Shown here: positions 50 through 26,432 of the stretch, in pieces
Numbering within the stretch: the stretch's first letter is position 1
Layout: every line of letters starts with the position of its first letter
From: a virus
UHGV virus genome: UHGV-0083175
DNA: 52,653 nucleotides
Reading direction: 5' to 3' (one strand)
Notes under the pieces: generated by a model
Database searches by the model: none
Told to the model about the DNA's origin: nothing
Seen by the model: the letters and a program-made list of their open reading frames with translations, nothing else
Program-made: the position numbers and the translations under genes

Positions 50-331
50 ATGGAAGAATTAAGAATATTTCTCAATTCTCTTTCGTCAGATGAACAGCGT
101 ATGTTTGCATGTGAGTGTGGTACTAGCATCGGTTATCTAAGAAAAGCATTGAGTAAAGGTCAAGTGTTAGGGGCATCGTTATGTGTCCTTATTGAGCGAG
201 CCAGTAATGGTGAAGTTACACGTCAGCAACTACGGCCTTTTGATTGGATGAACATTTGGCCTGAGCTGGAAGATACCCAAACGTTAACACAACCACTTTC
301 CAGGAGCTTGATTCATGAAAATCAAGCATGA
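50..331 (+). CDS. Cro/YdaS-family helix-turn-helix regulator
   Basis: 93-aa ORF; HTH-like segment GYLRKALSKGQVLGASLCVLIERASNGEVT resembles YdaS/Cro-type prophage regulators; first gene of the early rightward block. Confidence 0.55.
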   Translation: MEELRIFLNSLSSDEQRMFACECGTSIGYLRKALSKGQVLGASLCVLIERASNGEVTRQQLRPFDWMNIWPELEDTQTLTQPLSRSLIHENQA

Positions 332-752
332 ACATATCCGCATGGCAATGAATGCGTGGCTGCTTTATCCGAGGGTAGGGCGCAAAAAAATCGCTGATGA
401 TATAGCGACAGCATATTTTGAGCTTGAAATGACTTATCCACCAATGCATGACACCTCTACGACAGAGGGTATTGGATTGAACATACAAAATATTTTTCGC
501 TGGCTTGAAAAGGATACGCCTGATGCTGTTGAAAAAATTCAGGCACTAATTCCGGCTATCCTGACTGTTCTTCCGCGTGAACTGCGTTATCACCTCAGTA
601 TTTTTGACACTGTTGAGCGCCGTGCATTACTGGCGGCGCAGGAAGCGTTGAGCACGGCAATTGATGCACATGATGATGCAGTCCAGGCCGTTTACCGGAA
701 AGCGTATTTCAGCGACAGCGGGTCATCCGGCGAATCTGTTGTGGTGCATTGA
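315..752 (+). CDS. CII/YdaT-like prophage regulatory protein
   Basis: 145-aa ORF with AGGAG RBS; sits between Cro-like and replication genes as in Rac-type ydaS-ydaT-ydaU blocks. Confidence 0.4.
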   Translation: MKIKHEHIRMAMNAWLLYPRVGRKKIADDIATAYFELEMTYPPMHDTSTTEGIGLNIQNIFRWLEKDTPDAVEKIQALIPAILTVLPRELRYHLSIFDTVERRALLAAQEALSTAIDAHDDAVQAVYRKAYFSDSGSSGESVVVH

Positions 753-838
753 TATTTATGCCAGACCCCTGCTGATTCTGTTGATTGGGGAATCACAGAA
801 TATCACCAGAGGATGGTTCGTCACAAGATGAGGCAATT

Positions 839-1849
839 ATGGCCGCATTACCATACATGCAACTGTACATAGCTGATTACCTGGCTGACACCATGCATTT
901 GTCCGCAGAGGAGCACGGCGCGTATTTGTTGTTGATGTTCAATTACTGGCAAACAGGGAAACCAATACCTAAAAACAGGCTGGCAAAAATTTCCCGTCTG
1001 ACTAACGAGCGATGGGCTGATGTGGAACCATCCTTGCGGGAGTTTTTTTGCGATAACGGCGATGAATGGGTGCATCTTCGGATTGAGGAAGATCTGGCAT
1101 CAGTCAGGGAAAAATTAACCAAAAAATCAGCCGCCGGAAAAGCATCTGTTCAGGCCAGAAGAAGCAGAAAGGAAGCATATGTTCAAACAAAACAAGAGAG
1201 AGATTTAACAGGCGTTCAAACAAATGTTGGTGTTGTGTTTGAACATGACGCAAACACAAAAGCAACTAATAAAGATACAGATCTAAAAGAATTAAACCCC
1301 ACACATAACGTGCATGAACGCGAGAGTATTCCGACCAGTGAGTCGCATGGTGCGCCGTTGCAGACAGCCGAACCTGAATACCTGGACGGCCTGAGCGAAC
1401 CCATCGGGAAATTTTCGATGACTACTGTCTGGCAGCCGTCGCCGGATTTTCGACAACGGGCAGCAGTGTGGGGTATGGCTCTGCCTGAGCCGGAATTTAC
1501 ACCTGCTGAGCTTGCCGCATTCCGGGATTACTGGATGGCGGAGGGGAAGGTTTTCACGCAGGTTCAGTGGGAGCAGAAATTTGCCCGTCACGTGCAGCAC
1601 GTCAGGGCACAGGTAAAACCAGTCAGCAAGGGGGTAAGCCATGCAGCATCAGGTGGCACGGCATCACGGGCAGTTCAGGAAATCCGGGCAGCACGCGAAC
1701 AGTGGGAACGTGACAACGGATTTATCAGCAACGGAAACGGCCTGGAAGCTGTGGGAGCTTATGGGGGAGGTGTATTCGAACCGCTGGACTCAGAAGAACG
1801 GGGCCGCACCTTCGAAGCTCTGGATTGCCCAGATTGGTGCGATGACTGA
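839..1849 (+). CDS. replication initiation protein (DUF1376 N-domain, DnaT-like C-domain)
   Basis: ORF 785..1849; MAALPYMQLYIADYLADT motif typical of the DUF1376 N-terminus, so start placed at ATG 839; C-terminal FTPAELAAFRDYW resembles DnaT. Confidence 0.65.
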   Translation: MAALPYMQLYIADYLADTMHLSAEEHGAYLLLMFNYWQTGKPIPKNRLAKISRLTNERWADVEPSLREFFCDNGDEWVHLRIEEDLASVREKLTKKSAAGKASVQARRSRKEAYVQTKQERDLTGVQTNVGVVFEHDANTKATNKDTDLKELNPTHNVHERESIPTSESHGAPLQTAEPEYLDGLSEPIGKFSMTTVWQPSPDFRQRAAVWGMALPEPEFTPAELAAFRDYWMAEGKVFTQVQWEQKFARHVQHVRAQVKPVSKGVSHAASGGTASRAVQEIRAAREQWERDNGFISNGNGLEAVGAYGGGVFEPLDSEERGRTFEALDCPDWCDD

Positions 1850-2303
1850 ACAGCAAATCCGTCTGGTCTGCCGTCAGTGCATGGACCGCTGCCGGGCGGG
1901 TGAAACGTGGCCCCCGGACCTGGCTGAGTTTGTTGCGCTGATTTCGGAGAGTGGGGCAAATCCATTTGGTCTTACGGTGGATGCAGTGATGGAAGAGTAC
2001 CGGCGCTGGCGCAATGAATCCTGGCGATACGACGGGAGTGATAAATACCCGTGGCCACAGCCTGTGCTGTACCACATCTGCCTCGAAATGCGTACCAGAG
2101 GGATTGAGCGCCAGATGACGCAGGGTGAGTTAAAACGACTTGCGGAACGGCAACTGACGAAATGGGCAAAGCATGTTGGTAACGGGATGAGTGTTCCGCC
2201 AGTGCGACGACAACTGGAAGGGGCGAAACACCCGCAAGGGCCAACGCCAATTGAACGGCTGAAACAGGAATACGAACGCCGGAAGGCAGCTGGTTTTATT
2301 TGA
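1641..2303 (+). CDS. lambda P-like replication protein (helicase loader)
   Basis: 220 aa; C-terminal DKYPWPQPVLYHICLEMRTRG...GELKRLAERQL parallels lambda gpP; GGGGG RBS before ATG 1641; overlaps the upstream ORF by ~209 nt. Confidence 0.65.
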   Translation: MQHQVARHHGQFRKSGQHANSGNVTTDLSATETAWKLWELMGEVYSNRWTQKNGAAPSKLWIAQIGAMTEQQIRLVCRQCMDRCRAGETWPPDLAEFVALISESGANPFGLTVDAVMEEYRRWRNESWRYDGSDKYPWPQPVLYHICLEMRTRGIERQMTQGELKRLAERQLTKWAKHVGNGMSVPPVRRQLEGAKHPQGPTPIERLKQEYERRKAAGFI

Positions 2304-2336
2304 ATCTGAGAAACGATTTTGTCGGAGGAAATTTTA

Positions 2337-3053
2337 ATGGAAACCGTATTTGACGCACTGAAAGCACTGAAAAGAGCCTCTTCACAGGTAGTGGCGGCCC
2401 GCCTTGGAATCAGCCGTGAAGATGCGGTCAACGAACTGTGGAAACTGAAGCGCCGCGGTGAAGCGGATAACAAGGGTTCGATGTGGTGGCTGATTCAGGC
2501 TGGTGAAAGTGAACCGGTGTCACCGGTACCGAAAGTGACAGCGCAAATGCTGATTAAGGCGATTGAACAACATGGCCCACAAACGGCAGATGAGCTGGCA
2601 CTGATGTTCGGGATTACCTCCCGCCGGGCGAATTCATCGCTGGCCATGGCAATCAGCAAAGGGCGTCTGATTCGCGTGAATCAGGGCGGTAAATTTCGTT
2701 ACTGCATACCGGGCGCTGATTTACCGGCAGAGCCGGAAGCTGCATCCGTAGCGGAAACAGATGGTAAAGCCTTTCCTCAGCCAGCAGGTGTTGCGTTACC
2801 AGTCCGGGAAACGACGACACAGGAAGAAATGAAAACAGAAATCGTGGAAGACATTGTGAAGTTACAGCCATCGGTCACCGAAACGAAAGCAGATGACCTG
2901 ATTCTACCATCGCTGCATGTGGCTAACCGCGAGCTGCGCCGGGCAAAAGGTCAGGTTCAGAAGTGGGAGCGTGTCTGCGCCGCGCTGCGGGAACTGAACA
3001 AACACAGGGATATTCTCCGGGATATTACCGCCACCAGAGAGCTGCTGCGGTGA
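2337..3053 (+). CDS. hypothetical phage protein
   Basis: ORF 2319..3053; ATG 2337 has a GGAGGA RBS; no recognised catalytic motif. Confidence 0.45.
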
Positions 3054-6627: not shown

Positions 6628-6990
6628 ATGCTCATAGATTTGGTTTTACCTTACCCGCCGACGGTGAACACTTACTGGCGACGCCGTGGCAGCACATATT
6701 TTGTATCAAAAGCCGGGGAGCGTTATCGCCGGGCAGTGGCGCTTATTGTTCGCCAGCAGCGGCTGAAATTAAGACTGTCCGGACGGCTGGCAATAAAAAT
6801 TATTGCAGAGCCACCGGATAAGCGTCGTCGTGACCTGGACAATTTTCTGAAAGCGCCGCTGGATGCGCTGACGCATGCAGGAATGTTAATGGACGATGAG
6901 CAGTTTGATGAAATCAATATTGTACGTGGCAAGCCAGTATCTGGTGGACGGCTGGAGATAAGAATTACAGAGGTGGGTGTGCATGAATAA
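6628..6990 (+). CDS. rusA: Holliday junction resolvase RusA
   Basis: 120 aa; RRRDLDNFLKAPLDALTHAGMLMDDEQ and GGRLEIRITE align with E. coli RusA. Confidence 0.9.
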   Translation: MLIDLVLPYPPTVNTYWRRRGSTYFVSKAGERYRRAVALIVRQQRLKLRLSGRLAIKIIAEPPDKRRRDLDNFLKAPLDALTHAGMLMDDEQFDEINIVRGKPVSGGRLEIRITEVGVHE

Positions 6991-7648
6991 CCAGTATTTA
7001 CAGTTTGTTCGTGAGCAACTCATGATTGCCACTGCGGATCTTAGTGGGTCGACAAAAGGCCAGCTGGAAGTCTGGCAGGAAAATGCCCTGTTCGATACAG
7101 GGCGTTACAGACGCAAAAAAATTCGTTACCGCGATGAGGTAACCGGAAAAATGATCACGCGGGATAATCCCCCGATCCCGGGTAAACAATCACTGGCGAA
7201 AGGCTCATCAATTGCCCTGGTCAGTCCGGTTGAGTTTTCGACATCATCATGGCGACGCGCCGTTCTGTCTCTTGAAGAACATCATAAAGCCTGGCTGCTG
7301 TGGTGTTACAGCGGTAGCATTTGCTGGGAGCATCAGATCGCGATAACGCAGTGGGCGTGGACTGAATTTAATGCTCAATCCGGTACCAGAAAAATTGCAG
7401 GAAAAACTCTGGTGCGCCTGAAGACGTTGATCTGGTTGGCGGCGCAGGCGGTAAAAGCTGAGCTTTTTGGTGGGGAAGGTTACGAATACCAGGAACTGGC
7501 GTTACTGGTGGGAGTAACAACCAAAAACTGGTCCAAGACATTTACTGGTCACTGGGTTGCAATGAAACACATTTTTCATCGGCTGGATAGTGAAGCTTTA
7601 TTGTTGGTGGAGGGAACTCGTTCAAAACAAAAGGCGGCATTTTCATAG
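6983..7648 (+). CDS. late-gene antiterminator Q-like protein
   Basis: ATG 6983 overlaps the rusA stop (ATGAATAA); ~220 aa; immediately upstream of a strong promoter and terminator, as expected for Q / PR' / tR'. Confidence 0.55.
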   Translation: MNNQYLQFVREQLMIATADLSGSTKGQLEVWQENALFDTGRYRRKKIRYRDEVTGKMITRDNPPIPGKQSLAKGSSIALVSPVEFSTSSWRRAVLSLEEHHKAWLLWCYSGSICWEHQIAITQWAWTEFNAQSGTRKIAGKTLVRLKTLIWLAAQAVKAELFGGEGYEYQELALLVGVTTKNWSKTFTGHWVAMKHIFHRLDSEALLLVEGTRSKQKAAFS

Positions 7649-9136: not shown

Positions 9137-10195
9137 ATGCTTAATACTGTAAAAATATCCAGTTGTGAGTTAATCAACGCCGACTGCCTGGAATTTATCC
9201 GGTCGTTACCCGAAAATTCTGTTGACCTGATAGTCACGGACCCGCCGTACTTTAAAGTGAAGCCTGAGGGCTGGGATAACCAGTGGAAGGGCGACGATGA
9301 TTACCTGAAGTGGCTGGACCAGTGTCTGGCGCAGTTCTGGCGGGTGCTGAAACCTGCCGGAAGTCTTTACCTGTTCTGTGGCCATCGCCTGGCATCTGAT
9401 ATCGAAATCATGATGCGTGAACGCTTCAGTGTACTGAACCATATTATCTGGGCAAAGCCGTCCGGACGCTGGAACGGGTGCAACAAGGAAAGCCTGAGGG
9501 CGTATTTCCCCGCCACAGAGCGCATTCTGTTCGCGGAACATTATCAGGGGCCGTATCGTCCGAAAGATGCCGGGTATGAGGCGAAGGGCAGGGCACTGAA
9601 ACAGCATGTGATGGCTCCGCTGATTGCTTACTTTCGTGATGCGCGTGCTGCCCTGGGGATAACGGCAAAACAGATAGTGGATGCCACAGGAAAGAAAAAC
9701 ATGGTGTCGCACTGGTTCAGTGCCAGTCAGTGGCAGCTACCGAACGAAAGCGATTATCTGAAATTACAGGCGCTGTTTGCCCGGGTGGCAGAAGAGAAGC
9801 ATCAGCGCGGTGAACTGGAAAAGCCCCACCACCAGCTGCTGGAGACGTATACTTCACTGAACCGGCAGTATGCGGAACTGCAGAGTGAATATAAGCATCT
9901 GCGGCGGTATTTTGGCGTGACGGCGCAGGTGCCGTACACGGATGTGTGGACGCATAAACCGGTGCAGTACTATCCCGGGAAACATCCGTGCGAAAAACCG
10001 GCAGAAATGCTGCAGCAGATAATCAGCGCGAGCAGTCGTCCGGGGGACCTGGTTGCAGATTTTTTCATGGGGTCGGGTTCGACAGTCAAAGCCGCGATGG
10101 CGCTGGGGCGTCGTGCAACAGGCGTTGAGCTGGAGACTGAACGTTTTGAGCAGACGGTCAGGGAAGTTCAGGATTTAGCCAGTCAGAACGGATGA
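9137..10195 (+). CDS. DNA methyltransferase (N6-adenine/N4-cytosine class, DPPY motif)
   Basis: 352 aa; DLIVTDPPYF catalytic motif near the N-terminus and a C-terminal AdoMet-binding FFMGSGST segment. Confidence 0.8.
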   Translation: MLNTVKISSCELINADCLEFIRSLPENSVDLIVTDPPYFKVKPEGWDNQWKGDDDYLKWLDQCLAQFWRVLKPAGSLYLFCGHRLASDIEIMMRERFSVLNHIIWAKPSGRWNGCNKESLRAYFPATERILFAEHYQGPYRPKDAGYEAKGRALKQHVMAPLIAYFRDARAALGITAKQIVDATGKKNMVSHWFSASQWQLPNESDYLKLQALFARVAEEKHQRGELEKPHHQLLETYTSLNRQYAELQSEYKHLRRYFGVTAQVPYTDVWTHKPVQYYPGKHPCEKPAEMLQQIISASSRPGDLVADFFMGSGSTVKAAMALGRRATGVELETERFEQTVREVQDLASQNG

Positions 10196-10235
10196 TATTG
10201 CAGGATTAGTTACGTACCGTTATTATCCTGCGCCC

Positions 10236-10310
10236 GGCCCTTTAGCTCAGTGGTGAGAGCGAGCGACTCATAATCGCCAGGTCGCTGGTTCAAATCCAGC
10301 AAGGCCACCA
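10236..10310 (+). tRNA. tRNA with CAU anticodon (ileX-like tRNA-Ile2/Met), acceptor stem one nt short
   Basis: Hand-folded cloverleaf: D-arm GCTC/GAGC, anticodon loop CTCATAA, T-arm GCTGG-TTCAAAT-CCAGC, 3' ACCA; 3' acceptor strand AAGGCC versus expected AAGGGCC. Confidence 0.55.
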
Positions 10311-10319
10311 TATCACATA

Positions 10320-10396
10320 CCGCCATTAGCTCATCGGGATAGAGCGCCAGCCTTCGAAGCTGGCTGCGCGGGGTTCGAGTCCTCGATGGCGGTCCA
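10320..10396 (+). tRNA. tRNA-Arg (anticodon UCG)
   Basis: Complete 77-nt cloverleaf: acceptor CCGCCAT/ATGGCGG, anticodon loop CTTCGAA, T-arm CGGGG-TTCGAGT-CCTCG, 3' TCCA. Confidence 0.8.
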
Positions 10397-10674
10397 TTAT
10401 CTGCATTATGCGTTGTTGGTTCTGATGAGTGAATCATTGTCTTTTGAGCAACAGGCTATCATATAAGATAGCCTCAGACTTCCTTGTTTATTCTCGCCGG
10501 ATGCTTCGTAGATATTTGCAGGCATCTGTATGCAGGGGTATTATTGCGGCATATATCATCCGGAAAAATAAAAACTACATGCTGATCCGGAGATGATAGT
10601 TACAAGTCCTCCCGGATCCCGCATATTTACTATATTTTATAGATAATTGTTCTTGTTAATATGGAGATGGATAA

Positions 10675-11103
10675 ATGTATTGCCGTGCTGTACCGGTTCT
10701 TGTTTTGATATTAGCCAGTCTGACAACTGGCTGCACAAAAGATGTATCGACAAATAATTATGATGCTTCTCTGTATCACTCAGATAAATTAATAAAGTCG
10801 CAAAATTTGAGCTCATCGGAACGTACCCCTGATGCCAGTGAAGAAATCCGGCTGTATGCCATTCAGGTCAGGAAAGCCATAGAAGAACAGTTAAAGGATG
10901 CGAGTAAGTATTCAGGAAAAGAGTGTTCACTGAGAATGTATATGGCCCCGAATGGTCTTCTGCTACAGGTTAAAAGAGAAAGCGGTGATCCCGATTTATG
11001 TCGTGAAGCGATGAATGCAGTAAAGAATGCTGATATACCATCACCACCGTCTTCAGGAGTATATAAAGCATTTAGAAATGGCGTGCTGGATTTTAAACTC
11101 TGA
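10675..11103 (+). CDS. lipoprotein with TolA C-terminal domain (TolA-III) homology
   Basis: Signal peptide with lipobox LTTGC; C-terminal ~90 aa (GKECSLRMYMAPNGLLLQVKRESGDPDLCREAM...VYKAFRNGVLDFKL) align with E. coli TolA domain III. Confidence 0.7.
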   Translation: MYCRAVPVLVLILASLTTGCTKDVSTNNYDASLYHSDKLIKSQNLSSSERTPDASEEIRLYAIQVRKAIEEQLKDASKYSGKECSLRMYMAPNGLLLQVKRESGDPDLCREAMNAVKNADIPSPPSSGVYKAFRNGVLDFKL

Positions 11104-11168
11104 CAGGGGGAGAAGATTTTCTCCTGTCCTGATGATTTTGGGGCGCTGGAAAGATATTGTGCTGTGAA

Positions 11169-11560
11169 GTGTTAAATCCCTCACAATTCAGTAAGTTGAC
11201 AGTTGCCTGTCAGACTGAGCATTTGTTAAAAAAATTTCGCATGGTGAATCCCCCTGTGCGGAGGGGCGACTGGTGAACGGTATGATCTCTTTGATGATCG
11301 TAAGCGAGAATACGCGGGTTTGGTGTCACCGGGCTGAACTCACCGGGAGGCACCCGGCACCATGCTCATGGTGATACAGAAATGCGGCTTCAGCCCCTCT
11401 CCGGAGGGGCTTTCTTATGGACAAAAAAAGCCCGCGCTGGGAGACGCGGGCGGCAAGGAATAAACAATAAAACGTGAAGTAATACTTCAACTGGCGAATA
11501 ATACCCGACAGTAATCACTCTGCGCAATAGCGCGGCCTTTTTCGAATTGCGGGCTGTAGT
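11169..11560 (+). repeat. structured repeat unit A (with 3' extension shared with unit D)
   Basis: Shares with three downstream units the blocks GTGTTAAATYCCTCACAATTCA, TTGTTAAAAAA, GCATGGTGAATCCCCCTGTGCGGAGGGG, CACCGGGAGGCACCCGGCA and a terminator hairpin. Confidence 0.8.
11239..11416 (+). ncRNA. candidate small RNA, repeat copy A
   Basis: Runs from conserved GCATGGTG to terminator GCCCCTCTCCGGAGGGGC + T-run; 5' CATGGTG can pair with 3' CACCATG; two internal hairpins. Confidence 0.35.
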
Positions 11561-11575
11561 CTCCCTTCTGCCGGG

Positions 11576-11735
11576 TGGCCTGGTTGCAGATTTCTTCATG
11601 GGGTAGGGTTCGGCAGTTAAAGCAGCGATGGCGCTGGGGCGTCGTGCAACTGGCGTTGAGCTGGATACCGGGCGTTTTGAACAGACTGCGCAGGAAATCA
11701 GGGATGTATTTAGCGGGAGCGGTTTGCAGAAGTAA
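11576..11735 (+). pseudogene. duplicated 3' fragment of the DNA methyltransferase gene
   Basis: ~150 nt nearly identical to 10041..10195; translates as GLVADFFMG*GSAVKAAMALGRRATGVELDTGRFEQ with an in-frame stop. Confidence 0.6.
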
Positions 11736-11798
11736 TCTCCCAAAATGCCATTTTTGGAATATACTGGTATTAAGTCTTTTTGCTCAGGTTAATTCAAA

Positions 11799-12524
11799 AT
11801 GGATGTTGCCTGCTCTGTGGTCCTGATTCGCTATCCGATAGATATTTTTCTTGAAAAAGAAAAAGTTTCACTCGATGCCGGAAGTGTTATGCTTGTTGCC
11901 AGAAATATAAGAGGGCTTTTCTGTGCTTATGCCGACAGAGTGAAAATGGCAGATATAAGTAACAGCGTCGTCAATCAGTATCTGGAAAGGGAGTGTGAAC
12001 TGACGGAGTATACACCGACAAAAATGCCTCTTTATTTGATGTCTGATATTTACAATACGGAACTGGCGGAGGCTTTAATAACCCAGCATAGTGAATCCAG
12101 TGATACTTTGAAGGATTTCTCTGTTATAACCGCATTTTCATGTATCTCCTTATTTGCAACAGACAGGCGTCTGCCATTATTTTTGTCCGGTGCTGTAAAT
12201 AATATCAGCTGTAAAGTAAGGGCTATAATTCAGACCGACATATCGGCAGGCTGGATGCTAGGTGTGATTGCATTACAATTGCATATGAGCGAAAGCTTGT
12301 TGAAGCGAAAACTTAAGGATGAAGGTTATAGCTTTAGTCGGTTGTTGCTGGAGGAGCGAATGCGTGTTGCTGTTAATCTTGTATGTTTCCAGCGAGAGTG
12401 TGGACAAGCGATAGCGGAAAAATGTGGTTACTCAAGTAAGTCCTATTTCATTTCTGTATTTCACCAGTATTATGGTGCACCACCTGAGAGCTATGCATAT
12501 TTGCAGAAAGCAGACGTTATCTGA
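11799..12524 (+). CDS. AraC-family transcriptional regulator (moron)
   Basis: 241 aa; C-terminal double HTH (GWMLGVIALQLHMSESLLKRKLKDEGYSFSRLL...IAEKCGYSSKSYFISVFHQYYGAPPESY); AT-rich. Confidence 0.6.
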   Translation: MDVACSVVLIRYPIDIFLEKEKVSLDAGSVMLVARNIRGLFCAYADRVKMADISNSVVNQYLERECELTEYTPTKMPLYLMSDIYNTELAEALITQHSESSDTLKDFSVITAFSCISLFATDRRLPLFLSGAVNNISCKVRAIIQTDISAGWMLGVIALQLHMSESLLKRKLKDEGYSFSRLLLEERMRVAVNLVCFQRECGQAIAEKCGYSSKSYFISVFHQYYGAPPESYAYLQKADVI

Positions 12525-12613
12525 TGTTTTTTCATCAGGCATATATTGATTGACTGTATTAGATATAGTCTGAATGTGTTCAGCATAAAAAGTTATAATC
12601 ATTTGGTGTTTGC

Positions 12614-12892
12614 GTGAATATTGATGAGAAAATCAGATGTAGCCAACTGTTACAGCGTATTGAAGCCGTCAATGTGGAACGAACAAAGGTCTTCAGTCGT
12701 CTGACAGTTTTATTTTGTACCCCTGATCGACGTTCAGGTCAGGAGATGGTTCTTCTGGATGTAGATGCACTTCGGAACGTCTGTGAGGAGTTCACCGCGG
12801 CTAATTCGGAGTTACTGAGTCTTGTTCAGGAGTACAACAGAATTGCAGGTAGTAACGGTTTTGATGAAATCAAAATTATATCCCGTGGATAA
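12614..12892 (+). CDS. hypothetical protein
   Basis: 92-aa ORF with GTG start downstream of the AraC-like gene; no recognised motif. Confidence 0.3.
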   Translation: MNIDEKIRCSQLLQRIEAVNVERTKVFSRLTVLFCTPDRRSGQEMVLLDVDALRNVCEEFTAANSELLSLVQEYNRIAGSNGFDEIKIISRG

Positions 12893-13210
12893 AACATATC
12901 CTGTATATTTATGTTGTTACATACAGGCGCTTTTAGTATCTGCCGCACGGCAGTTGTACTTTAGAATAAGATGCTTTTGTGACTGGTGGTGTTGTATCTG
13001 GGGTTAGCCAGGAGGCAGGTTCAGAGAGTCCGGTGGTAATTATGTGTATGCAGTGGTTGTTGCTGTACCGTGGGCAAGTTCTGGAACTGGCTTCGTCCAT
13101 TGTAGATGATTGTTAGCTGGATATCAGTTACCTCATGGAAATGTTAAATGACTCACAATTCGGTTGATGGACTATTGTCTGATCGATGGAAGTCTTGTAA
13201 AAACGAGCCA

Positions 13211-13377
13211 GCATAGTGAATCCCCCTGTGCGGAGGGGCGTCTGACATGGTCTCCATAGCGATGGTCACAATACGCAGATTCAGTAGTCAGGCTGAATCT
13301 ACCGGGAGGCACCCGGCACTATGCTGCTTATGGTGTATACATAGCGATCGGCCCCTCTCCGGAGGGGCTTTTTTTGT
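13211..13377 (+). ncRNA. candidate small RNA, repeat copy B
   Basis: GCATAGTG...CACTATGC long-range pairing (compensatory versus copy A), conserved hairpins, terminator GCCCCTCTCCGGAGGGGC + TTTTTTT. Confidence 0.35.
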
Positions 13378-13469
13378 GCGGGAAAAGGCTGTGTTGTTAA
13401 GTGTTAAATTCCTCACAGTTCAGATGGTTGATGCTTGCCTGTCTGAGGGGGAGTTGTTAAAAAAGTTCT

Positions 13470-13637
13470 GCATGGTGAATCCCCCTGAGCGGAGGGGCAT
13501 ATCAGCGCAGGTGTTTCTACTCTATCCTTTCTGTGCGGGTTCAGGTGCTGATACTGAACTCACCGGGAGGCACCCGGCATCATGCATATGGTTAACAGAC
13601 ACGTAGCGAAGCCCCTCTCCGGAGGGGCTTTTTTATG
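13470..13637 (+). ncRNA. candidate small RNA, repeat copy C
   Basis: GCATGGTG...CATCATGC pairing with one G-U wobble, conserved hairpins, terminator + T-run. Confidence 0.35.
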
Positions 13638-13729
13638 CAGGGAAAAGGCTGTGTTGTGAAATGTTAAATTCCTCACAATTCATGAGGTTGATGATTGTCT
13701 GATTGATGAGGAGTTTGTTAAAAAAAACG

Positions 13730-13884
13730 GCATGGTGAATCCCCCTGTGCGGAGGGGTGATATCGTATCATTTCATGTGTGGCCGACTGATATCACGGAC
13801 ATTTGTTCACCGGGAGGCACCCGGCACCTGCAGTATACAGAGATTAGGCATACATCCAGGCTCCTCATCGCAGGAGCCTTTTTA
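13730..13884 (+). ncRNA. candidate small RNA, repeat copy D
   Basis: Conserved 5' blocks; terminator replaced by compensatory variant GCTCCTCATCGCAGGAGC + TTTTT. Confidence 0.3.
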
Positions 13885-14115
13885 CATGTAAAAAAAACCG
13901 CTCCCGGGAAGAGCGGTTGGCAAGGAAGCAAGGAATAAATAACAAAACGTGAAGTAATTTATTCAGCACCCTAATAATACCTTAGAGTAATCACCTTGCG
14001 CAACTGTAAGGGCGTATTTCTTTTTTGCGGGCTGTTTTTCTGTGTGACTTTTGTGTTTCCGGAGGTCAGTCCGTGCCTTCTCTGACTCAGAACATTATCC
14101 CGGCCGGGAGGATTC

Positions 14116-16053
14116 ATGGCATTTAAACACTACGATGTGGTCAGGGCGGCATCGCCGTCAGACCTTGCTGAACGACTGACACAAAAACTGAAGGAGGGCT
14201 GGCAGCCATTTGGCAGTCCGGTGGTCATCACGCCTTATACCCTGATGCAGGCCATTGCGGCGGAAGGTGATGTCACCACACCAGTGGCGGTGACCGGTAA
14301 TGAGGGTAAGGCGGTGGCTGTCAGTGCCACCAGCGACCCGGAGTATTACTTTGTTGTGGTTCTGGCAGGGCAGTCAAATGGCATGTCGTATGGTGAAGGT
14401 CTTCCGCTGCCGGAGACATATGACCGTCCGGACCCGCGTATTAAGCAGCTGGCGCGCCGCAGTACGGTGACACCGGGCGGTGTCGCCTGTAAATATAACG
14501 ACATCATTCCGGCGGACCATTGTCTGCATGATGTGCAGGACATGAGCCGTCTTAACCATCCGAAAGCGGACCTGTCAAAGGGGCAGTACGGAACCGTGGG
14601 GCAGGGGCTGCATATCGCCAAAAAACTGCTGCCGTTTATACCGGCGAATGCGGGTATTCTGCTGGTTCCGTGCTGTCGTGGTGGTTCAGCGTTCACCACC
14701 GGAGCTGATGGCACATACAGTGACGCGAGTGGTGCCTCGGAGAATTCAGCGCGCTGGGGTGTGGACAAGCCGCTGTATAAGGACCTTATCGGTCGAACAA
14801 AAGCAGCACTGAAGAAGAACCCGAAAAATGTGCTGTTTGCCGTGGTGTGGATGCAGGGGGAATTTGATTTTGACGGCACGCCCGGAAATCACGCAGCACA
14901 GTTTGGTGCGCTGGTTGATAAATTCCGTGCAGACCTGACGGATATGGCAGGTCAGTGCGTTGGTGGCTCTGCTGGCGGTGTTCCCTGGATATGCGGGGAC
15001 ACGACGTATTTCTGGAAGCAGAAGAACGAATCCACCTGCCAGATGGTGTACGGCAGCTATAAAAACAAAACGGAAAAGAATATCCATTTCGTACCGTTCA
15101 TGACGGATGAGAACGGGGTGAATGTGCCGACGAACAAACCGGAAGAAGACCCGGACATTCCGGGTATCGGGTATTACGGTTCGAAATGGCGTGACAGCTC
15201 AGCCACCTGGACGTCACAGGACAGGGCGAGCCATTTCAGCACCTGGGCACGCCGGGGGATTATTTCCGACCGTCTGGCAACGGCGATTCTGATTCATGCA
15301 GGACGAACCACAGTAAAAGTCGATGCTCCATCTTCTGAAACTGGCGCACCGACGCCATCACCGTCAGAAAATGAAGCGGTAAGCACAACAACACTGCTGT
15401 CTTACCGTGCCAGTGAGTCTGAAGGGAGGCTGACCGAACAGGGCTGGAGTGCTGGCGGAGGTAAAGCGGAAATTGTTGCTGATGAAGGTGCAACAGGTGG
15501 TACCGCGATGAAGCTGAGCAAGGAGACAGGAGTGGGGTCATGGTATCTGGAGCATGATGCCGGTACTGGCGCTGAACTGCTGAAAAATGGCGGTTTAATC
15601 AGCTGCCGCTTTAAGGCATCCGGTGAACTGGTAGCAAATCAGTATGTCATTGCACTTTACTGGCCGGTTTCCTCTCTGCCGCAGGGTGTCACCCTGACAG
15701 GGGATGCAGGGAATAATCTGCTGGCAGCGTTTTACATCCAGACAGATGCAAAAGACCTGAATGTGATGTACCACAATGCGAAGGTGGCGACAAATAACCT
15801 GAAACTGGGAAGCTTTGGCGCATTTGATAACGAATGGCATACGCTGGCTTTCCGCTTTGCCGGGAATAACAGCCTTCAGGTGACGCCGGTTATTGATGGT
15901 CAGGATGGCACACCGTTCACGCTGACGCAGTCACCGGTCAGTGCATTTTCGGCGGATAAGTTGCATGTGACAGACATTACCAAAAGTGCGACTTACCCGG
16001 TACTGATAGACAGCATTGCGGTGGTAGTGAATAACGCGGACGCCGCGGCATGA
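14116..16053 (+). CDS. nanS-p: NanS-p-like sialate O-acetylesterase (SGNH/SASA hydrolase)
   Basis: 645 aa; VVVLAGQSNGMSYGEG active-site region; size and position (upstream of the lysis cassette) match nanS-p of Stx phages. Confidence 0.75.
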   Translation: MAFKHYDVVRAASPSDLAERLTQKLKEGWQPFGSPVVITPYTLMQAIAAEGDVTTPVAVTGNEGKAVAVSATSDPEYYFVVVLAGQSNGMSYGEGLPLPETYDRPDPRIKQLARRSTVTPGGVACKYNDIIPADHCLHDVQDMSRLNHPKADLSKGQYGTVGQGLHIAKKLLPFIPANAGILLVPCCRGGSAFTTGADGTYSDASGASENSARWGVDKPLYKDLIGRTKAALKKNPKNVLFAVVWMQGEFDFDGTPGNHAAQFGALVDKFRADLTDMAGQCVGGSAGGVPWICGDTTYFWKQKNESTCQMVYGSYKNKTEKNIHFVPFMTDENGVNVPTNKPEEDPDIPGIGYYGSKWRDSSATWTSQDRASHFSTWARRGIISDRLATAILIHAGRTTVKVDAPSSETGAPTPSPSENEAVSTTTLLSYRASESEGRLTEQGWSAGGGKAEIVADEGATGGTAMKLSKETGVGSWYLEHDAGTGAELLKNGGLISCRFKASGELVANQYVIALYWPVSSLPQGVTLTGDAGNNLLAAFYIQTDAKDLNVMYHNAKVATNNLKLGSFGAFDNEWHTLAFRFAGNNSLQVTPVIDGQDGTPFTLTQSPVSAFSADKLHVTDITKSATYPVLIDSIAVVVNNADAAA

Positions 16054-22102: not shown

Positions 22103-22380
22103 TACCTGTGTGGAGCACGGCCTGCCCGGACTGGGCAGAGCGCCTGAAAAAGGGGCTGTCGATTATTCCGGCTCCGATTTACCCGGACCAGGCCGCACAT
22201 GCCCTGGCGATTTTTAAACAACTGCGGATTGTGGATGCACCGGGCAGCCCGACGTTCGGGGAGTCCTGTGCACCGTGGGTGTTTGATCTGGTGGCTGCCC
22301 TGTTTGGCTCCTACGATGCGCAGACCGGTGTACGCCATATAAAGGAAGTGTTCATTCTGATACCGAAAAATAATAGATAA
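22099..22380 (+). CDS. terminase large subunit, N-terminal fragment (gene split by satellite insertion)
   Basis: 93 codons ending ...KEVFILIPKNNR*; the remaining terL sequence resumes in frame ~9.5 kb downstream (...IPKKNSKSTLAAG...). Confidence 0.7.
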   Translation: MIPVWSTACPDWAERLKKGLSIIPAPIYPDQAAHALAIFKQLRIVDAPGSPTFGESCAPWVFDLVAALFGSYDAQTGVRHIKEVFILIPKNNR

Positions 22381-22543
22381 TAAAAAAACAAATAAAGTGT
22401 TTATTTGTTTTTTTCTACGTTTTATCAAATAGTTATGGTTATCTTTGCTCTATGTTTTTATGTGTTGCTAACGGCAGATTTTAACGCTTTGTTGTTGACA
22501 TGGACTAACCGATGAACCATAAACTTTATCTGTAGGGGCATTT

Positions 22544-23779
22544 ATGCTAATCAAACCGTTAAGCCATGTTGAAGTAAAGAACGCAAAACCAAAGGATAAA
22601 GATTACTCGCTTCATGATGGATTTGGGTTGTTGTTATATGTTTCAAGAAAAGGCTGTAAAACATGGCGTTTCAGGTATCAGCACCCCGACACCAAAAAAA
22701 GACAAACGCTTACCATTGGTCGTTATCCAGATTATTCAATAGCTGAGGCAAGAGAGGAAAGGGATAAAGCAAGGAAATTACTTTCAAGAGGTGTGGATCC
22801 TAATGAGTCTAAGCGCAAGGCAAAATCTGAACGAATTATGCTGAGGTCACAGACCTTTGAAAAAATAACAAATAACTGGTTTGAATTGTATTTAAAGGGA
22901 AGCAGAAGGGAAAATACAGTAAAAACAGTTAGCAGAGTTATTAAAGTTTATATTATTCCTGATTTTGGGGGTTGGACGATTTATGATATACGTGCTGATA
23001 ATGTATTGTCAGTTATTAGAAAATATGACGAAACGCCTGCACAGCAACGAAAAATAGTACAGGTTATGCGTCTTGTTATGGATTATGCCGTGAATGCTGG
23101 AATTGTTCAGTTTAATCCGTTGTCTCGTATTCATAAAGCGCTTCCACCTATGGAAGAGAAAAGCTTTAAGGCGCTGCCCATAGAAAGATTACCCGCTTTT
23201 CTTAATTGGCTTGAGTCAGAAAGTTGTCATCCATCAATAACATATGGTCTTCTTTTTATGATGCTGACAATGACCAGACCTAACGAGGCATTAGGTGCCA
23301 AATGGTCAGAACTGGACGTTGACAGAAAACTATGGACCATTCCAGCAGAGAGGATGAAGGGGAAAAGAGAACACATTATTCCTTTATCTTTACAGGCTGT
23401 TGAAGTGATAATGCGAATGAGAAAAATAAAACAAAGTGAGTATGTTTTTTTTGGTGCTCATTCAGTTGCAAAGGCAATAACGAGAGATGCTATTGTCAGT
23501 AGGGTTAATAAAAGCGAGTTTGCAAAGGAAATGACAGTACACGGATTCAGGTCAATGTGGAGCACATTACTCAATGAAGAGGGATTTAACCCCGATGTTA
23601 TAGAGGCTGCACTTGCACATAAGAGCGGAAATACTGTAAGGGATATTTATAACAGGACGTCATATATTGAACAGCGGGTAATAATGATGCAATGGATAGG
23701 TGATTTTGTCGATTCTGCAAGACGTGGGGTTATTGTTAGGACGCATGGTAAACGCGGTTTAAAATTGGTAAATGAATAA
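22544..23779 (+). CDS. int: tyrosine integrase (P4-type)
   Basis: 411 aa; P4-integrase-type N-terminus and C-terminal catalytic domain (HGFRS...LAH...Y); adjacent to the left junction. Confidence 0.85.
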   Translation: MLIKPLSHVEVKNAKPKDKDYSLHDGFGLLLYVSRKGCKTWRFRYQHPDTKKRQTLTIGRYPDYSIAEAREERDKARKLLSRGVDPNESKRKAKSERIMLRSQTFEKITNNWFELYLKGSRRENTVKTVSRVIKVYIIPDFGGWTIYDIRADNVLSVIRKYDETPAQQRKIVQVMRLVMDYAVNAGIVQFNPLSRIHKALPPMEEKSFKALPIERLPAFLNWLESESCHPSITYGLLFMMLTMTRPNEALGAKWSELDVDRKLWTIPAERMKGKREHIIPLSLQAVEVIMRMRKIKQSEYVFFGAHSVAKAITRDAIVSRVNKSEFAKEMTVHGFRSMWSTLLNEEGFNPDVIEAALAHKSGNTVRDIYNRTSYIEQRVIMMQWIGDFVDSARRGVIVRTHGKRGLKLVNE

Positions 23780-23791
23780 GGTGTACAATAT

Positions 23792-23998
23792 ATGAATGAT
23801 ATAAATAATAGTCAGATTTTGTTGCGTGATGATGTGATGAAAAAATTGCGATACAACAACGCGGCTGCTTTTCATATGTTTTTTAACAGAACGCCGGACT
23901 TTCCAAAGCCCTTCAAGATAGGCCGTCGCAATGCCTGGTATGAAGAGGATGTGCAAAATTGGCTTGATGAACAGCGAAGAAAAGCCCTTGAGGAGTGA
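23792..23998 (+). CDS. alpA: AlpA-family excisionase / transcriptional regulator
   Basis: 68 aa; FPKPFKIGRRNAWYEEDVQNWL matches the AlpA/Xis HTH signature; immediately downstream of int. Confidence 0.7.
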   Translation: MNDINNSQILLRDDVMKKLRYNNAAAFHMFFNRTPDFPKPFKIGRRNAWYEEDVQNWLDEQRRKALEE

Positions 23999-24056
23999 AC
24001 GTAAAAGAACAGGCGTCCTTAAAGGTCGCCTGTTATGTAGTAGTGGAATATTACAA

Positions 24057-24419
24057 TCATGTTTTTTTTGATGCTATGTAAGCAAGAATGCACGGTTCCT
24101 TTGCCAGTTGTGACCCTTTCGATCTGGCTGTTTTCGCACTGTATCCAGCAAGAATAGCGCACTGTGTCTGATTCAGCCCTTTCATCATGTAATCAGCAAA
24201 TTTCTTTTTTTGCTTCGTCAGCTTGTTTGTTTGGTCGTTTTTATCATCGTTTGCGGTAAAAACATTAGATGTGGTCTTAAGCTGATGTTTACAGGCTTCA
24301 ATTACCCACGATGAGAAGTTGGAGTGCGCTTTATCTCTTTCTATGCGTTTTTCAATATCAGCTAATAAGTCAGGCGGGAAGCGGATCCCCTTAAGTATCG
24401 CTTTGCGTGTTTTGTCCAT
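24057..24419 (-). CDS. RHH domain fused to a terS-like HTH domain (putative satellite regulator)
   Basis: N-terminal GIRFPPDLLADIEKRI...NFSSWVIEACKHQL (RHH); C-terminal KKKFADYMMKGLNQTQCAILAGYSAKTARSKGSQLAKEP near-identical to the helper TerS N-terminus. Confidence 0.55.
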   Translation of the reverse strand: MDKTRKAILKGIRFPPDLLADIEKRIERDKAHSNFSSWVIEACKHQLKTTSNVFTANDDKNDQTNKLTKQKKKFADYMMKGLNQTQCAILAGYSAKTARSKGSQLAKEPCILAYIASKKT

Positions 24420-24692
24420 TCATGGCCCCAAAATAAGTAGTGTTAACTTGTTACTATTTAACAGTTTTTGAGGGTGTGTTAAACAAAAAACTGGTTTGTG
24501 TTTAACGAAAATCGCTTCGTGTTAAACACGTTGCCTAGTTAGTGGGGACAGATGACGAGTTGATCAAACCTGCCGGATAACAGGCAAAGAAAAGGCCACC
24601 TGTCACGGTGGCCCTTCGACACAAATTTCGCGTTATCCCCAACGCATGAGCATCGCCGACAATGCCACATTTACGGCTGGTGGACAAGGCTA

Positions 24693-24920
24693 TCAGCCAG
24701 GCGGTCGGTTTTTAGTGGCTTTTAACCGCCGTGGGTATTTCTCGACAAAATCTTCAAGGGCAAATTTTTCTGGTGGCATTAAGCGCGGCGCTGGTGGTGG
24801 TATTTTTGTTCTGGTTAGTTCTTCCTCAACTCTGGCGCAGGCTTCTGACTGCCTTTGCCGGATGATTTCATCATCTTGCGTTTGCGTGTCTTGTATTGGT
24901 GATAGTGTGTTGTTGGTCAT
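24693..24920 (-). CDS. hypothetical protein
   Basis: 75-aa minus-strand ORF downstream of the small RHH gene; weak RBS. Confidence 0.3.
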   Translation of the reverse strand: MTNNTLSPIQDTQTQDDEIIRQRQSEACARVEEELTRTKIPPPAPRLMPPEKFALEDFVEKYPRRLKATKNRPPG

Positions 24921-24977
24921 GATACTGCCCTGTAAAGCAATGCGCCGTAGTACCTCACACCACGGCGCTGATAGTGA

Positions 24978-25157
24978 TTATTCTGATTCTTTGGCCTTGC
25001 GGCGCTGGCGGCGTTTGATCTCGCCTTTTGCTGCCGTAACTAGAAATCCGGCGGTACTTTCGCCAGGTTCTTTAAGTTGCTCAATATCGGTCATTACCTC
25101 ATGCGGGATTCTGACCGTTGTCATTTGTGATTTTGCGTTCTTTGCACCTGTTGCCAT
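24978..25157 (-). CDS. small DNA-binding protein (possible satellite repressor)
   Basis: 59-aa ORF with AGGAGA RBS (MATGAKNAKSQMTTVRIPHEVMTDIEQL...); faces a divergent promoter region containing inverted repeats. Confidence 0.45.
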   Translation of the reverse strand: MATGAKNAKSQMTTVRIPHEVMTDIEQLKEPGESTAGFLVTAAKGEIKRRQRRKAKESE

Positions 25158-25177
25158 TTCTGGTTCTCCTGATAATC

Positions 25178-25270
25178 GGTGTATTTCAGTATACGCAAAA
25201 AAAAAGATAAAAAAAGTCTTGCGGTGTATTTCACCTGAATGTAGATTTAAAAATGAAGGTGAAATACACC
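25178..25270. promoter_or_regulatory. operator-like inverted repeats in the satellite divergent control region
   Basis: GGTGTATTTCACC (25223-25235) and its exact reverse complement GGTGAAATACACC (25258-25270), plus a third half-site GGTGTATTTCAG at 25178. Confidence 0.45.
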
Positions 25271-25343
25271 TAAAACAACAACGCCCCGCAGTGATGGGAA
25301 CACATACGGGGCGTCTAACCAACAACGTAAACGAGGAGCCGTT

Positions 25344-25541
25344 ATGGTTGCCGTAAATCATATACCACACCTTGTACACACACAAACGGCCTTTGTGTGG
25401 CGTTTTCTGGCACTGAGTGCCGGAGAATCTCAAATCATCCACGTAACCGCCTGGACGGAACGCGAAGCGCGTAACCGTTGCCCGTCCGGTTGTGTTGCTG
25501 TATTTGCCGCCCGTATTCGTCAGGAGGTGCGCCATGATTAA
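25344..25541 (+). CDS. hypothetical protein (first gene of the satellite rightward operon)
   Basis: 65-aa ORF with GAGGAG RBS. Confidence 0.35.
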   Translation: MVAVNHIPHLVHTQTAFVWRFLALSAGESQIIHVTAWTEREARNRCPSGCVAVFAARIRQEVRHD

Positions 25542-25746
25542 TCTGTCACTTACTGACCTTAACCGCATTCAGTTTCGTGAGAAATTCACAGGGCAGCTAC
25601 TGGTCAATGTGGATAAAGGTCGCGTGGTGTGTAATTACCACTTACCAGATGAAGCAATTGTCGCCACAAGGGAATCATTACAGGAAATCACAAAACGTGC
25701 CGGAATGATTAACACGAATATTCAGGGGATGCTTTATGCACAATAA
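25534..25746 (+). CDS. hypothetical protein
   Basis: Internal ATG with CAGGAGGTG RBS; 70 aa. Confidence 0.4.
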   Translation: MINLSLTDLNRIQFREKFTGQLLVNVDKGRVVCNYHLPDEAIVATRESLQEITKRAGMINTNIQGMLYAQ

Positions 25747-25975
25747 AACCACACCGGACGCAGCCGCCGAAGCCATCAAAACGCTGATGCACGCGCTGAT
25801 TGATATTTCTGTTATCGCGGACAGGGCACATAAGCACGCCACCAGCGAAACAGAATATGCCGGTGCTTTCGTTCCTCACTCACTGGCTGTCATGCAATTT
25901 AGTGCTGATACGGCGCTGAATGAGGCCAAAGCTATCCTGATTGCTGATTGTGAAAATGGGGGGGGTTATGCGTGA
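25736..25975 (+). CDS. hypothetical protein
   Basis: 79-aa ORF, translationally coupled to neighbours. Confidence 0.35.
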   Translation: MHNKTTPDAAAEAIKTLMHALIDISVIADRAHKHATSETEYAGAFVPHSLAVMQFSADTALNEAKAILIADCENGGGYA

Positions 25976-26427: not shown

Positions 26428-26432
26428 AAATA

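Follow-up and report, generated by a model that had tools for sequence, protein, structure and literature searches.

A methyltransferase pseudogene in the Shiga toxin slot of a lambdoid prophage as the probable scar of an unequal crossover between two phages

Genes and features of the slot

The stretch of DNA analysed here (hereafter, the window) comprises 52,653 nucleotides of the virus genome UHGV-0083175. It contains the late region of a lambdoid prophage, and the locus of interest lies between Q/pR' and the lysis genes, in the slot that is occupied by stx in Stx phages. The Q gene is located at 6977-7648 (Pfam, E=1.3e-90), and the collinear ST130 prophage encodes an esterase, a holin and a lysozyme downstream. 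All features described below are on the plus strand, unless indicated otherwise. An intact gene (9137..10195) encodes a beta-class N6/N4 DNA methyltransferase of 352 aa (Pfam PF01555, E=5.8e-44, residues 29-340), which retains the catalytic motif IV, TDPPY, and is annotated as DNA-methyltransferase in near-identical genomes; its 3' end is referred to as the A tail. It is followed by a tRNA with a CAT anticodon (10235-10309; ARAGORN, Rfam tRNA model and PGAP, the latter assigning tRNA-Ile, ileZ type) and by tRNA-Arg(TCG) (10320-10396; ARAGORN and Rfam tRNA model). The cargo of this first module is a 142-aa protein with a TolA C-terminal domain (10675..11103; PF06519, E=4.6e-22) and a lipoprotein-like N-terminus, the lipobox of which was judged by eye only. 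Next to it is a predicted small RNA of the STnc100 family (11210..11422; Rfam RF02076, 172.4 bits, E=6.5e-40, gathering threshold 47 bits), which covers model positions 1-206 and ends in an intrinsic terminator predicted by a terminator scan at 11392-11411. The module terminates with the truncated leader of a sialate-esterase gene of the nanS-p type (11423..11572), identified by alignments to the Stx2a phage L001 and to the tolA phage L006; in intact relatives, this leader runs for another 70 nt beyond 11572, to the ATG of the esterase.

The second module starts with a methyltransferase remnant at 11573..11735, followed by its cargo, an AraC cassette (11761..13049; alignment and annotation). 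The cassette includes a gene for an AraC-family regulator (11799-12524; Pfam HTH_18 and HTH_AraC), which one source names "AraC family transcriptional activator of adiA", and a 92-aa ORF (12614-12892). Three more predicted STnc100 copies (13182-13377, 13441-13640 and 13702-13889; Rfam, 119-141 bits) precede a sialate O-acetylesterase-type gene (14116..16053; Pfam DUF1737, SASA and DUF6645, and annotation in relatives), the conserved right-hand anchor of the slot. Thus, four predicted STnc100 copies, all scoring above the Rfam gathering threshold, lie beside the esterase gene, and their number varies among relatives, with one fewer in strain SMBL. This arrangement resembles the STnc100/PasD prophage sRNA systems, in which STnc100 copies likewise adjoin an esterase gene: STnc100 hits are frequent in the flanks of PasD-family sRNA genes near esterase genes, and homologous recombination around the esterase gene has been suggested (Zhu, Shabalina and Storz, bioRxiv 10.64898/2026.05.13.724894). 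The methylase remnant, tolA and the AraC cassette are not mentioned in that work.

The slot of Stx2-converting phages contains Q, a small ORF, a DNA methylase, the ileZ-argN-argO tRNAs, stx2AB, an sRNA region, a nanS-p/yjhS esterase and a holin. The gene order in the window is the same, and its methylase, its first two tRNAs and the stretch after stx2B up to 11572 are 94-96% identical at the nucleotide level. Alignment to L001 showed that the homology spans the methylase and both tRNAs, to about 10410, and that the Stx2a region downstream of stx corresponds to 11180-11572 of the window. There are two differences, namely, (i) the TolA-domain gene occupies the place of argO, the third tRNA, and stx2AB, and (ii) the second module, with the methylase remnant, the AraC-like regulator and the three additional STnc100 copies, is intercalated before the esterase.

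A diverged direct repeat of the methyltransferase 3' end

The last 156 nt of the intact methylase gene (10040-10195) recur downstream. A repeat scan of the window detected a direct repeat of 138 nt, 83% identical without gaps, between 10040-10177 and 11571-11708, and within-window blastn aligned 10040-10155 with 11571-11686 (88.8% over 116 nt, E=2e-38); the methylase gene had no further significant match in this search across the 52.6 kb. The copies are separated by 1,531 nt. A second copy of the methylase 3' end had been claimed in the original prediction, made from the sequence alone, and is borne out at practically the coordinates given there. The in-frame stop (TAG at 11604-11606) and the contents of the intervening block were also recovered, that is, two tRNAs, the TolA-domain protein and one repeat unit, then called unit A and recognized here as an STnc100 copy. 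The description of the copies as nearly identical, however, does not hold: there are 33 mismatches among 156 aligned positions, and these are distributed unevenly, with 90% identity in the first 81 nt (10040-10120) and 67% in the last 75 nt (10121-10195). The coding tail of the downstream copy is also 3 codons longer, and we designate it the B tail. The lower identity of the tails, together with the greater length of the B tail, changed the interpretation of the repeat. Because the tail is only 67% identical to that of the local gene, the downstream copy is not a recent local duplication. The copies, being direct repeats only 1,531 nt apart, might also have arisen in a single phage if its methylase 3' end had been duplicated in tandem, by slippage or unequal sister exchange, with subsequent divergence and later cargo insertion; such a history is contradicted by the concentration of the divergence in the tail, by the occurrence of the intervening block as a complete module on its own in other phages, and by the identity of the B tail to that of an intact methylase located beside the same AraC gene in other phages. 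We consider such a duplication extremely improbable.

The downstream copy is 163 nt long and consists of the last 53 codons and the stop codon of a 355-codon B-tail allele. Translated in the frame of the full gene, it reads PGGLVADFFMG, a stop codon, GSAVKAAMALGRRATGVELDTGRFEQTAQEIRDVFSGSGLQK, and the stop codon of the allele itself (TAA at 11733-11735). The premature TAG replaces the TCG (Ser) of the full gene and disrupts the AdoMet-binding motif I (FxGxG), which becomes DFFMG-stop-GS. When the stop is read as Ser, the stub matches profile positions 181-219 of 221 of the Pfam N6_N4_Mtase family (E=6e-9). No in-frame start codon is available for the stub, and no DPPY motif IV was found near it, the upstream sequence being the esterase leader. 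Judged from its sequence, the stub would not qualify as a functional beta-class N6/N4 DNA methyltransferase (PF01555), with neither motif IV nor an ORF containing an intact motif I. Given the missing catalytic DPPY half, the missing start codon and the nonsense codon, the stub is likely to have no coding function and appears to be a scar.

The existing annotation is in agreement with this assessment. PGAP flags the segment as a pseudogene ([quoted passage not shown]), and the RefSeq/PGAP entries FZ043_RS10840 (ST130) and JFX52_RS28340 (STEC2018-607) have the same coordinates and the same call as determined here, but are silent on the origin of the stub, on the junction and on the parental phages. 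In strain N51, the stub tail is annotated as a 36-aa hypothetical protein, which is probably spurious. The repaired 54-aa stub, used as a protein query, returned only short partial proteins, because the full-length genes belong to one large 90% cluster. The lack of a full-length protein with the residues private to the remnant (PGG, GSGSA) among the eight matches read is weak negative evidence. The same query also revealed a conversion variant without the stop (P0055). A search for structured RNAs (Rfam, E<=0.1) over the region yielded none overlapping the stub; apart from the two tRNAs and the STnc100 copies, it gave a single match, below threshold and on the minus strand, over the first tRNA.

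A sharp junction shared by many genomes

The left edge of the remnant is a breakpoint that can be assigned to a single nucleotide. The homology that the esterase leader shows to tolA-type and Stx2a phages extends precisely to 11572, and methylase homology begins at 11573; this join lies inside the triplet that corresponds to codon 302, and the microhomology there amounts to just 2 nt (CC). The two independent comparators, L001 (Stx2a) and L006 (tolA), read CTTCTGCC up to the breakpoint and continue with ATTGTCC and on to the esterase ATG, whereas the window reads CTTCTGCC followed by GGGTGGCCTGGTT. An 80-nt probe across the join was fully covered in 88 of the 5,426 complete E. coli genomes, and in 222 other E. 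coli genomes, the match stopped exactly at probe position 40, which corresponds to 11572 in the window. Such an abrupt end of homology at one nucleotide, shared by many comparisons, is expected of a mosaic junction.

Other mechanisms of insertion were considered as well. No gene for a transposase or an integrase lies between 6.9 and 16 kb, and a repeat scan found no inverted repeats flanking the block. These observations, along with the length (138-163 nt) and identity (83%) of the repeat and the different tail alleles of its copies, led us to reject a scar of transposition or site-specific insertion. Chi sites are present at 9015, 9829 and 14327, with none at the junction.

Parental-type arrangements and variants

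Both arrangements that flank the junction were found separately in other phages. The first parental type, exemplified by S1-CAM-02-A, has the order methylase, tRNA-Ile, tRNA-Arg, tolA, STnc100 and esterase, with no remnant; L006 is of this type. The tolA block without the remnant is present in about 36 genomes, a number obtained by subtraction (123 minus 87), with one genome inspected. The second parental type (L005, L009 and L010) is represented by strain SMBL, in which the same AraC gene lies 63 nt behind a methylase of 355 aa; with the exception of one STnc100 unit, SMBL is collinear with 11571-14130 of the window at about 99.5% identity. The stub tail allele is 99.5% identical over 1.3 kb to this intact methylase-AraC arrangement. 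In the IMG/VR contigs L009 and L010, the intact B-tail methylase likewise precedes AraC, with no tRNAs. A comparison with related prophages lacking the tRNA/TolA block had been suggested in the original prediction; in SMBL, L009 and L010, the B-tail methylase lies directly before the AraC gene. The very same protein of 355 aa has been recorded from 60 contigs, and the intact B-tail methylase beside AraC is rare among complete genomes (1/5,426). The exact 31-nt B-tail pattern was detected in nine IMG/VR contigs, two with intact genes and seven with remnants. We also sought a donor outside E. coli; the pattern was absent from all 185,579 GTDB species-representative genomes.

The remnants examined (those of the window, L002, L003, L004, seven IMG/VR contigs and L019) have the same junction with tRNA genes upstream, and tolA was confirmed upstream in seven of them. 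They share the TAG and the private substitutions, except that in L019 an A-type patch spans at least 11605-11681 and the stop codon is missing. In strain N51, the remnant is present and there is no full-length methylase. In STEC2018-607, the remnant is retained and the whole AraC cassette is absent, with indel edges that share only "AT".

Homologous exchange within the methylase gene is evident from the comparison of SMBL with the window. The two are about 98% identical through the methylase up to 10120, and then the tail and the downstream cargo switch. All three intact B-tail genes display a pattern of an A core joined to a B tail. Between SMBL and the remnant there are six differences, every one of them in the interval 11578-11624, and none in the next ~1,280 nt. 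SMBL itself could therefore be a secondary recombinant (A-type core with a B tail) rather than a parent.

Origin of the junction

We consider it very probable that the stub is the scar of one unequal, non-homologous crossover that joined the cargo regions of two related lambdoid prophages of E. coli. Two such phages would have met and recombined unequally in the late-operon cargo slot, at 2 nt of microhomology. The first phage would have contributed the left part, namely, Q, the A-tail methylase, tRNA-Ile, tRNA-Arg, the TolA-like gene, one STnc100 copy and the esterase leader, which breaks off 70 nt short of the ATG, and the second phage the right part, namely, the B-tail methylase from codon 303, the AraC-like cassette, STnc100 copies, the esterase and the lysis genes, so that the product would contain both cargo modules in tandem. 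Subsequently, the scar would have been spread and edited by homologous recombination, and it is now found behind different Q and methylase backgrounds, with or without the AraC cassette. Gene conversion with full-length copies can patch the stub, which could also recombine with the upstream gene, in which case the tRNA/TolA block would be deleted and an intact chimeric methylase rebuilt. From the repeat, the exact breakpoint, the two parental-type arrangements, the junction shared by many genomes and the conversion variant, all of which were observed, we infer a single event as the maker of the junction, as well as the direction of the events.

The original prediction of a recombinational scar of cassette exchange can be retained in part. 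The stub does appear to be a scar in a hot spot of cargo exchange, and the statement that a block was inserted is just one description of a single unequal crossover that stacks two modules; homologous recombination at the methylase 3' end, on the other hand, is not compatible with the non-homologous left edge. An insertion or exchange of the tRNA/TolA/STnc100 cassette by homologous recombination at this site, with the duplicate as its footprint, is consistent with the methylase gene being a real point of homologous exchange, as shown by the switch after 10120 in the SMBL comparison, and with gene conversion between remnants and full-length copies. However, a reciprocal homologous exchange swaps the downstream part without generating a second copy, so homologous recombination alone cannot produce the duplication; moreover, the left edge of the stub abuts an unrelated esterase leader with only 2 nt in common, and the copies carry different tail alleles, 67% identical. 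This scenario appears very unlikely.

A similarly low probability, if anything slightly lower, is assigned to an insertion with two junctions, in which the 3' end of the B-tail methylase and the AraC cassette would have landed in the leader of the esterase gene of a tolA-type phage. The left junction is indeed within that leader, and the comparison with STEC2018-607 shows the AraC cassette to be an indel in its own right, with 2-nt edges, but the leader of the first phage (ATTGTCCTGTAACTTCC...) never resumes rightward. From 11573 up to the start of the esterase gene, the window remains collinear with SMBL-type sequence, and the entire leader is present there in a diverged version, so that one crossover suffices.

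A different possibility, compatible with the origin of the stub as a crossover scar, is that it has been kept because it is useful, either by supplying the AraC-like gene with a promoter or 5' UTR or by acting as a homology hinge for the gain and loss of the tRNA/TolA module. In the intact arrangement, 63 nt separate the stop codon of the methylase from the start of the AraC gene, the control region of which may thus extend into the 3' end of the methylase; in addition, 88 genomes have kept the junction. Furthermore, a block of 26 nt, located 3' of the TAG, is perfectly identical between the copies (10094-10119 and 11625-11650), and the intact B-tail genes (3/3) match the product of a crossover there. 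Conversely, STEC2018-607 retains the stub without the AraC cassette, and neutral hitch-hiking explains its retention equally well. A promoter scan found no sigma-70-like site on the plus strand at 11573-11799, where no Rfam family matched either, and we rejected a promoter of the AraC-like gene inside the stub. Overall, we regard retention for a useful role as doubtful. The specific proposal that a RecA-mediated crossover in the 26-nt block excises the tRNA/TolA/STnc100 module and rebuilds a chimeric methylase before the AraC-like gene is somewhat less doubtful, but still unlikely. If it were true, the rare intact arrangement would be a revertant rather than a parent, the cargo of the stx slot would be gained and lost reversibly via the scar, and the private substitutions at 11578-11618 would be either all that survives of an unsampled methylase allele or the mark that error-prone repair left at the original join.

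Significance

The locus represents ordinary phage mosaicism, in a segment already annotated as a pseudogene in RefSeq. In lambdoid phages, the mosaic junctions and "morons" known from the work of Hendrix, Juhala and colleagues are sharp breaks in homology that result from non-homologous recombination and are followed by homologous shuffling at conserved flanks. The junction described here shares with them the sharp break at one nucleotide with 2-nt microhomology, the involvement of late-operon cargo genes, and the use of conserved flanks for exchange (the methylase on the left, STnc100 and the esterase on the right). It differs in that the break inside a gene leaves a recognisable pseudogene and in that both parental-type arrangements are still found in the databases.

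In practical terms, the finding is of modest value. Annotations should treat the stub as a pseudogene or scar rather than as a gene. The junction at 11572/11573 is a clean, single-origin marker of one prophage lineage that could be used for prophage typing, and many of the 88 junction-positive E. coli genomes are from STEC isolates of cattle or human origin. From the direct repeats, instability would be expected, in the form of deletion of the tRNA/TolA module. As the parental-type arrangements, the gene-conversion variant and the cassette-loss variants can all still be observed, the locus is a well-documented case in which the slot of the Shiga toxin gene can stack a second cargo module, in all probability through one non-homologous crossover.

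The Second Copy of the Methylase 3' End

A repeat search aligned 10040-10177 with 11571-11708 (138 nt, 83% identity, without gaps, spacing 1,531 nt), and blastn with the methylase gene as query returned a sole second match in the whole window (116 nt, 88.8%, E = 2e-38), with all remaining hits at E > 0.1. The second copy of the methylase 3' end is thus real and significant. The original prediction had called the two copies nearly identical; they are diverged instead, with 33 mismatches over 156 positions, the identity being 90% across 10040-10120 and only 67% across 10121-10195. The coding tail of the downstream copy is 3 codons longer. Translated in the full gene's frame, this copy reads PGGLVADFFMG, stop, GSAVKAAMALGRRATGVELDTGRFEQTAQEIRDVFSGSGLQK, stop. 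The first stop is the in-frame stop that had been predicted, TAG at 11604-11606, in place of the full gene's TCG (Ser of the FxGxG AdoMet motif), and the second is its own terminal TAA (11733-11735). The downstream copy matches positions 181-219 only of the Pfam profile, has neither the enzyme's DPPY half nor a start codon, contains a nonsense codon, and is annotated by PGAP as a pseudogene.

Gene Order and the Cargo Slot

The window is the late region of a lambdoid prophage. The Q antiterminator (6977-7648) is followed by two small or unassigned ORFs, the methylase (9137-10195), a tRNA(CAT) and a tRNA-Arg(TCG), and the TolA-like gene (10675-11103), which encodes a 142-aa TolA-C-terminal-domain protein. 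A full-length STnc100 copy (Rfam RF02076, 172 bits) separates this gene from the methylase stub (11573-11735). The two tRNAs, the TolA-domain protein and the repeat unit expected in the intervening DNA are all present. The stub is followed by an AraC-family regulator (11799-12524), a 92-aa ORF without a Pfam match (12614-12892), STnc100 copies 2-4 (three units, 13182-13889) and a sialate-esterase-type gene (14116-16053), downstream of which collinear genomes carry a holin and a lysozyme.

The cargo slot is the toxin slot of Stx2 phages, and its architecture in the window is that of the stx slot. Stx2a phages have the methylase and the first two tRNAs in common with the window, up to about 10410, but carry argO and stx2AB at the position of the TolA-like gene; homology returns at about 11180 and extends through 11572. 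The second tRNA (10320-10396) has the anticodon TCG at every tolA-linked locus examined, compared to TCT at the aligned position of its orthologue in the Stx2a phage L001, from which the window differs at two more sites in the 3' stem segment (GAGTCCTCGA vs. GAGCCCCCGA). A paralogue of 'tolA' (~81% identity) occurs in a different context in many other E. coli genomes. Any role of the TolA-domain protein as a decoy, whether for TolA-dependent colicins or for filamentous phages, is purely speculative. PMC10877973 reviews the prophage Psr/PatE group, of which the AraC-like gene may be a member. The repeat units are members of STnc100/PasD, whose association with esterase genes and recombination is discussed in bioRxiv 10.64898/2026.05.13.724894, with no mention of the methylase stub.

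Elsewhere in the prophage, a ~9.56-kb element (22371-31932), missing from the otherwise collinear ST130 prophage, splits the large-terminase gene near codon 88. Encoded on this element are a tyrosine integrase that has an Arm-DNA-binding domain (22544-23779), a primase/helicase-like protein of the AAA_25 type (26729-28126), an SSB (28892-29290), a small terminase (30040-30669) and a capsid-family protein (30829-31755). Imperfect att-like repeats flank it near 22359 and 31930, and the element resembles a PICI/P4-like phage satellite integrated in the terL of a potential helper. Its integrase-terL junction was found in one of 5,426 complete E. coli genomes (strain 90-3040). There are 20 Chi sites (GCTGGTGG) in the 52.6-kb window, compared to 2.1 expected from shuffles, and 12 of the 20 cluster at 24676-31005 within the satellite-like island. 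In the ST130 prophage, an ompC-type porin gene (36081-37244 of L018) is annotated amid tail genes, in a region collinear with the tail region of the window.

A Non-Homologous Join, Probably Between Two Phage Types

The left edge of the stub, at 11572/11573, is a non-homologous join. The window reads ...CTTCTGCC/GGGTGGCCTGGTTGCAG... (the slash marks the join), full-length methylases read ...GCAGTCGTCC/GGGTGACCTGGTTGCAG... at the corresponding site, and the Stx2a phage L001 and the tolA-carrying S1-CAM-02-A read ...GCGGGCTGTAGTCTCCCTTCTGCC/ATTGTCCTGTAACTTCC..., with the esterase ATG 70 nt further on. Microhomology across the join consists of "CC" only, and the join interrupts the counterpart of methylase codon 302. 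With an 80-nt probe centred here, 88 of the 5,426 complete E. coli genomes gave a full match, each at a single site, and 222 further genomes matched up to exactly probe position 40 (window 11572).

The stub probably derives from another methylase allele that is still extant intact. The SMBL prophage carries a 355-aa methylase, a 63-nt gap and then the same AraC-like gene as the window, with no tRNAs or tolA at this locus; from 11571 to the esterase start, the two are collinear at about 99.5%, SMBL having one STnc100 unit fewer. The full methylases of SMBL and the window share about 98% identity as far as 10120, beyond which each has its own tail. Two IMG/VR contigs (L009 and L010) have the SMBL arrangement, and the exact 355-aa methylase is on record for 60 contigs. 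The other arrangement is found in S1-CAM-02-A (methylase, tRNA-Ile, tRNA-Arg, tolA, STnc100 and esterase, without the stub); the tolA block without the stub occurs in about 36 genomes (by subtraction, 123 vs. 87; one inspected).

The structure is best explained by a single unequal crossover of a tolA-type with an AraC-type phage. This event would have joined the esterase leader of the tolA phage to methylase codon 302/303 of the AraC phage, resulting in a tandem pair of cargo modules, each consisting of a methylase 3' end, cargo, STnc100 and leader. A second junction is unnecessary: rightward from 11572, the window keeps to the SMBL type throughout, the complete leader being present there in a diverged version. 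Homologous recombination alone cannot generate the duplication, and local duplication is ruled out by the foreign tail allele of the stub; no transposase, integrase genes or inverted repeats were found around the tRNA/TolA block. The scar of cassette exchange proposed originally thus holds in part: it is a recombination scar, but not the product of a homologous mechanism, and the stub is not a copy of the local gene. In classic lambdoid-phage mosaicism, non-homologous joins are followed by homologous shuffling at conserved flanks. The formation of the stub would be the same process, and the stub is a new, well-resolved case of a known event type, its pseudogene status being already in RefSeq.

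Shared Remnants and Later Editing

We examined the remnants in the window, ST130, STEC2018-607, N51, seven IMG/VR contigs and AQGP01000109. All have the identical junction with tRNA genes upstream, and tolA upstream was confirmed in seven. The TAG, together with substitutions at 11594, 11613, 11618 and 11624, is present in all of them except AQGP01000109, which combines the usual junction with an A-type patch (that of the intact methylase of the window) over at least 11605-11681, without the stop codon. This patch is a gene-conversion tract with a full-length copy as the source. The remnants are likely to have a single origin and to have been edited later.

Remnant variants also show later shuffling. 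N51 has the stub without any full-length methylase, its tRNAs lying directly after Q and tR'. In STEC2018-607, the stub is more diverged (95%), and the AraC-like gene and the 92-aa ORF are precisely missing as one 1,289-nt cassette (11761-13049), the edges of this indel having 2 nt (AT) in common. STnc100 array copy number varies among near-identical prophages: SMBL has two units where the window and N51 have three, and STEC2018-607 has a fused or deleted form, a pattern compatible with unequal crossover among the ~260-nt units.

Substitutions Near the Join

All six differences between the window and SMBL fall in 11578-11624, with zero over the following ~1,280 nt; the chance of such clustering under a uniform rate is about 4e-9. 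A recombination boundary thus lies at 11625-11650. Other full-length alleles carry two of the six (11594 and 11624) as polymorphisms, and the other four (11578, the TAG at 11605, 11613 and 11618) are private to remnants and lie no more than 46 nt from the junction. At 11578, full genes have A, seven remnants have T, and the window and STEC2018-607 have G. The private cluster may reflect decay sheltered from homogenisation, an allele not yet sampled, or mutagenic repair of the join.

On one reading, the junction-proximal 50 nt of the remnant escaped homogenisation and then decayed. On the other, intact genes with an A core and a B tail (the tail allele of the stub and SMBL) arose by crossover of an A-type gene with a remnant. 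If such an exchange took place in the 26-nt identical block 10094-10119/11625-11650, exactly this "A core + B tail" gene would result, and the tRNA/TolA module would be removed.
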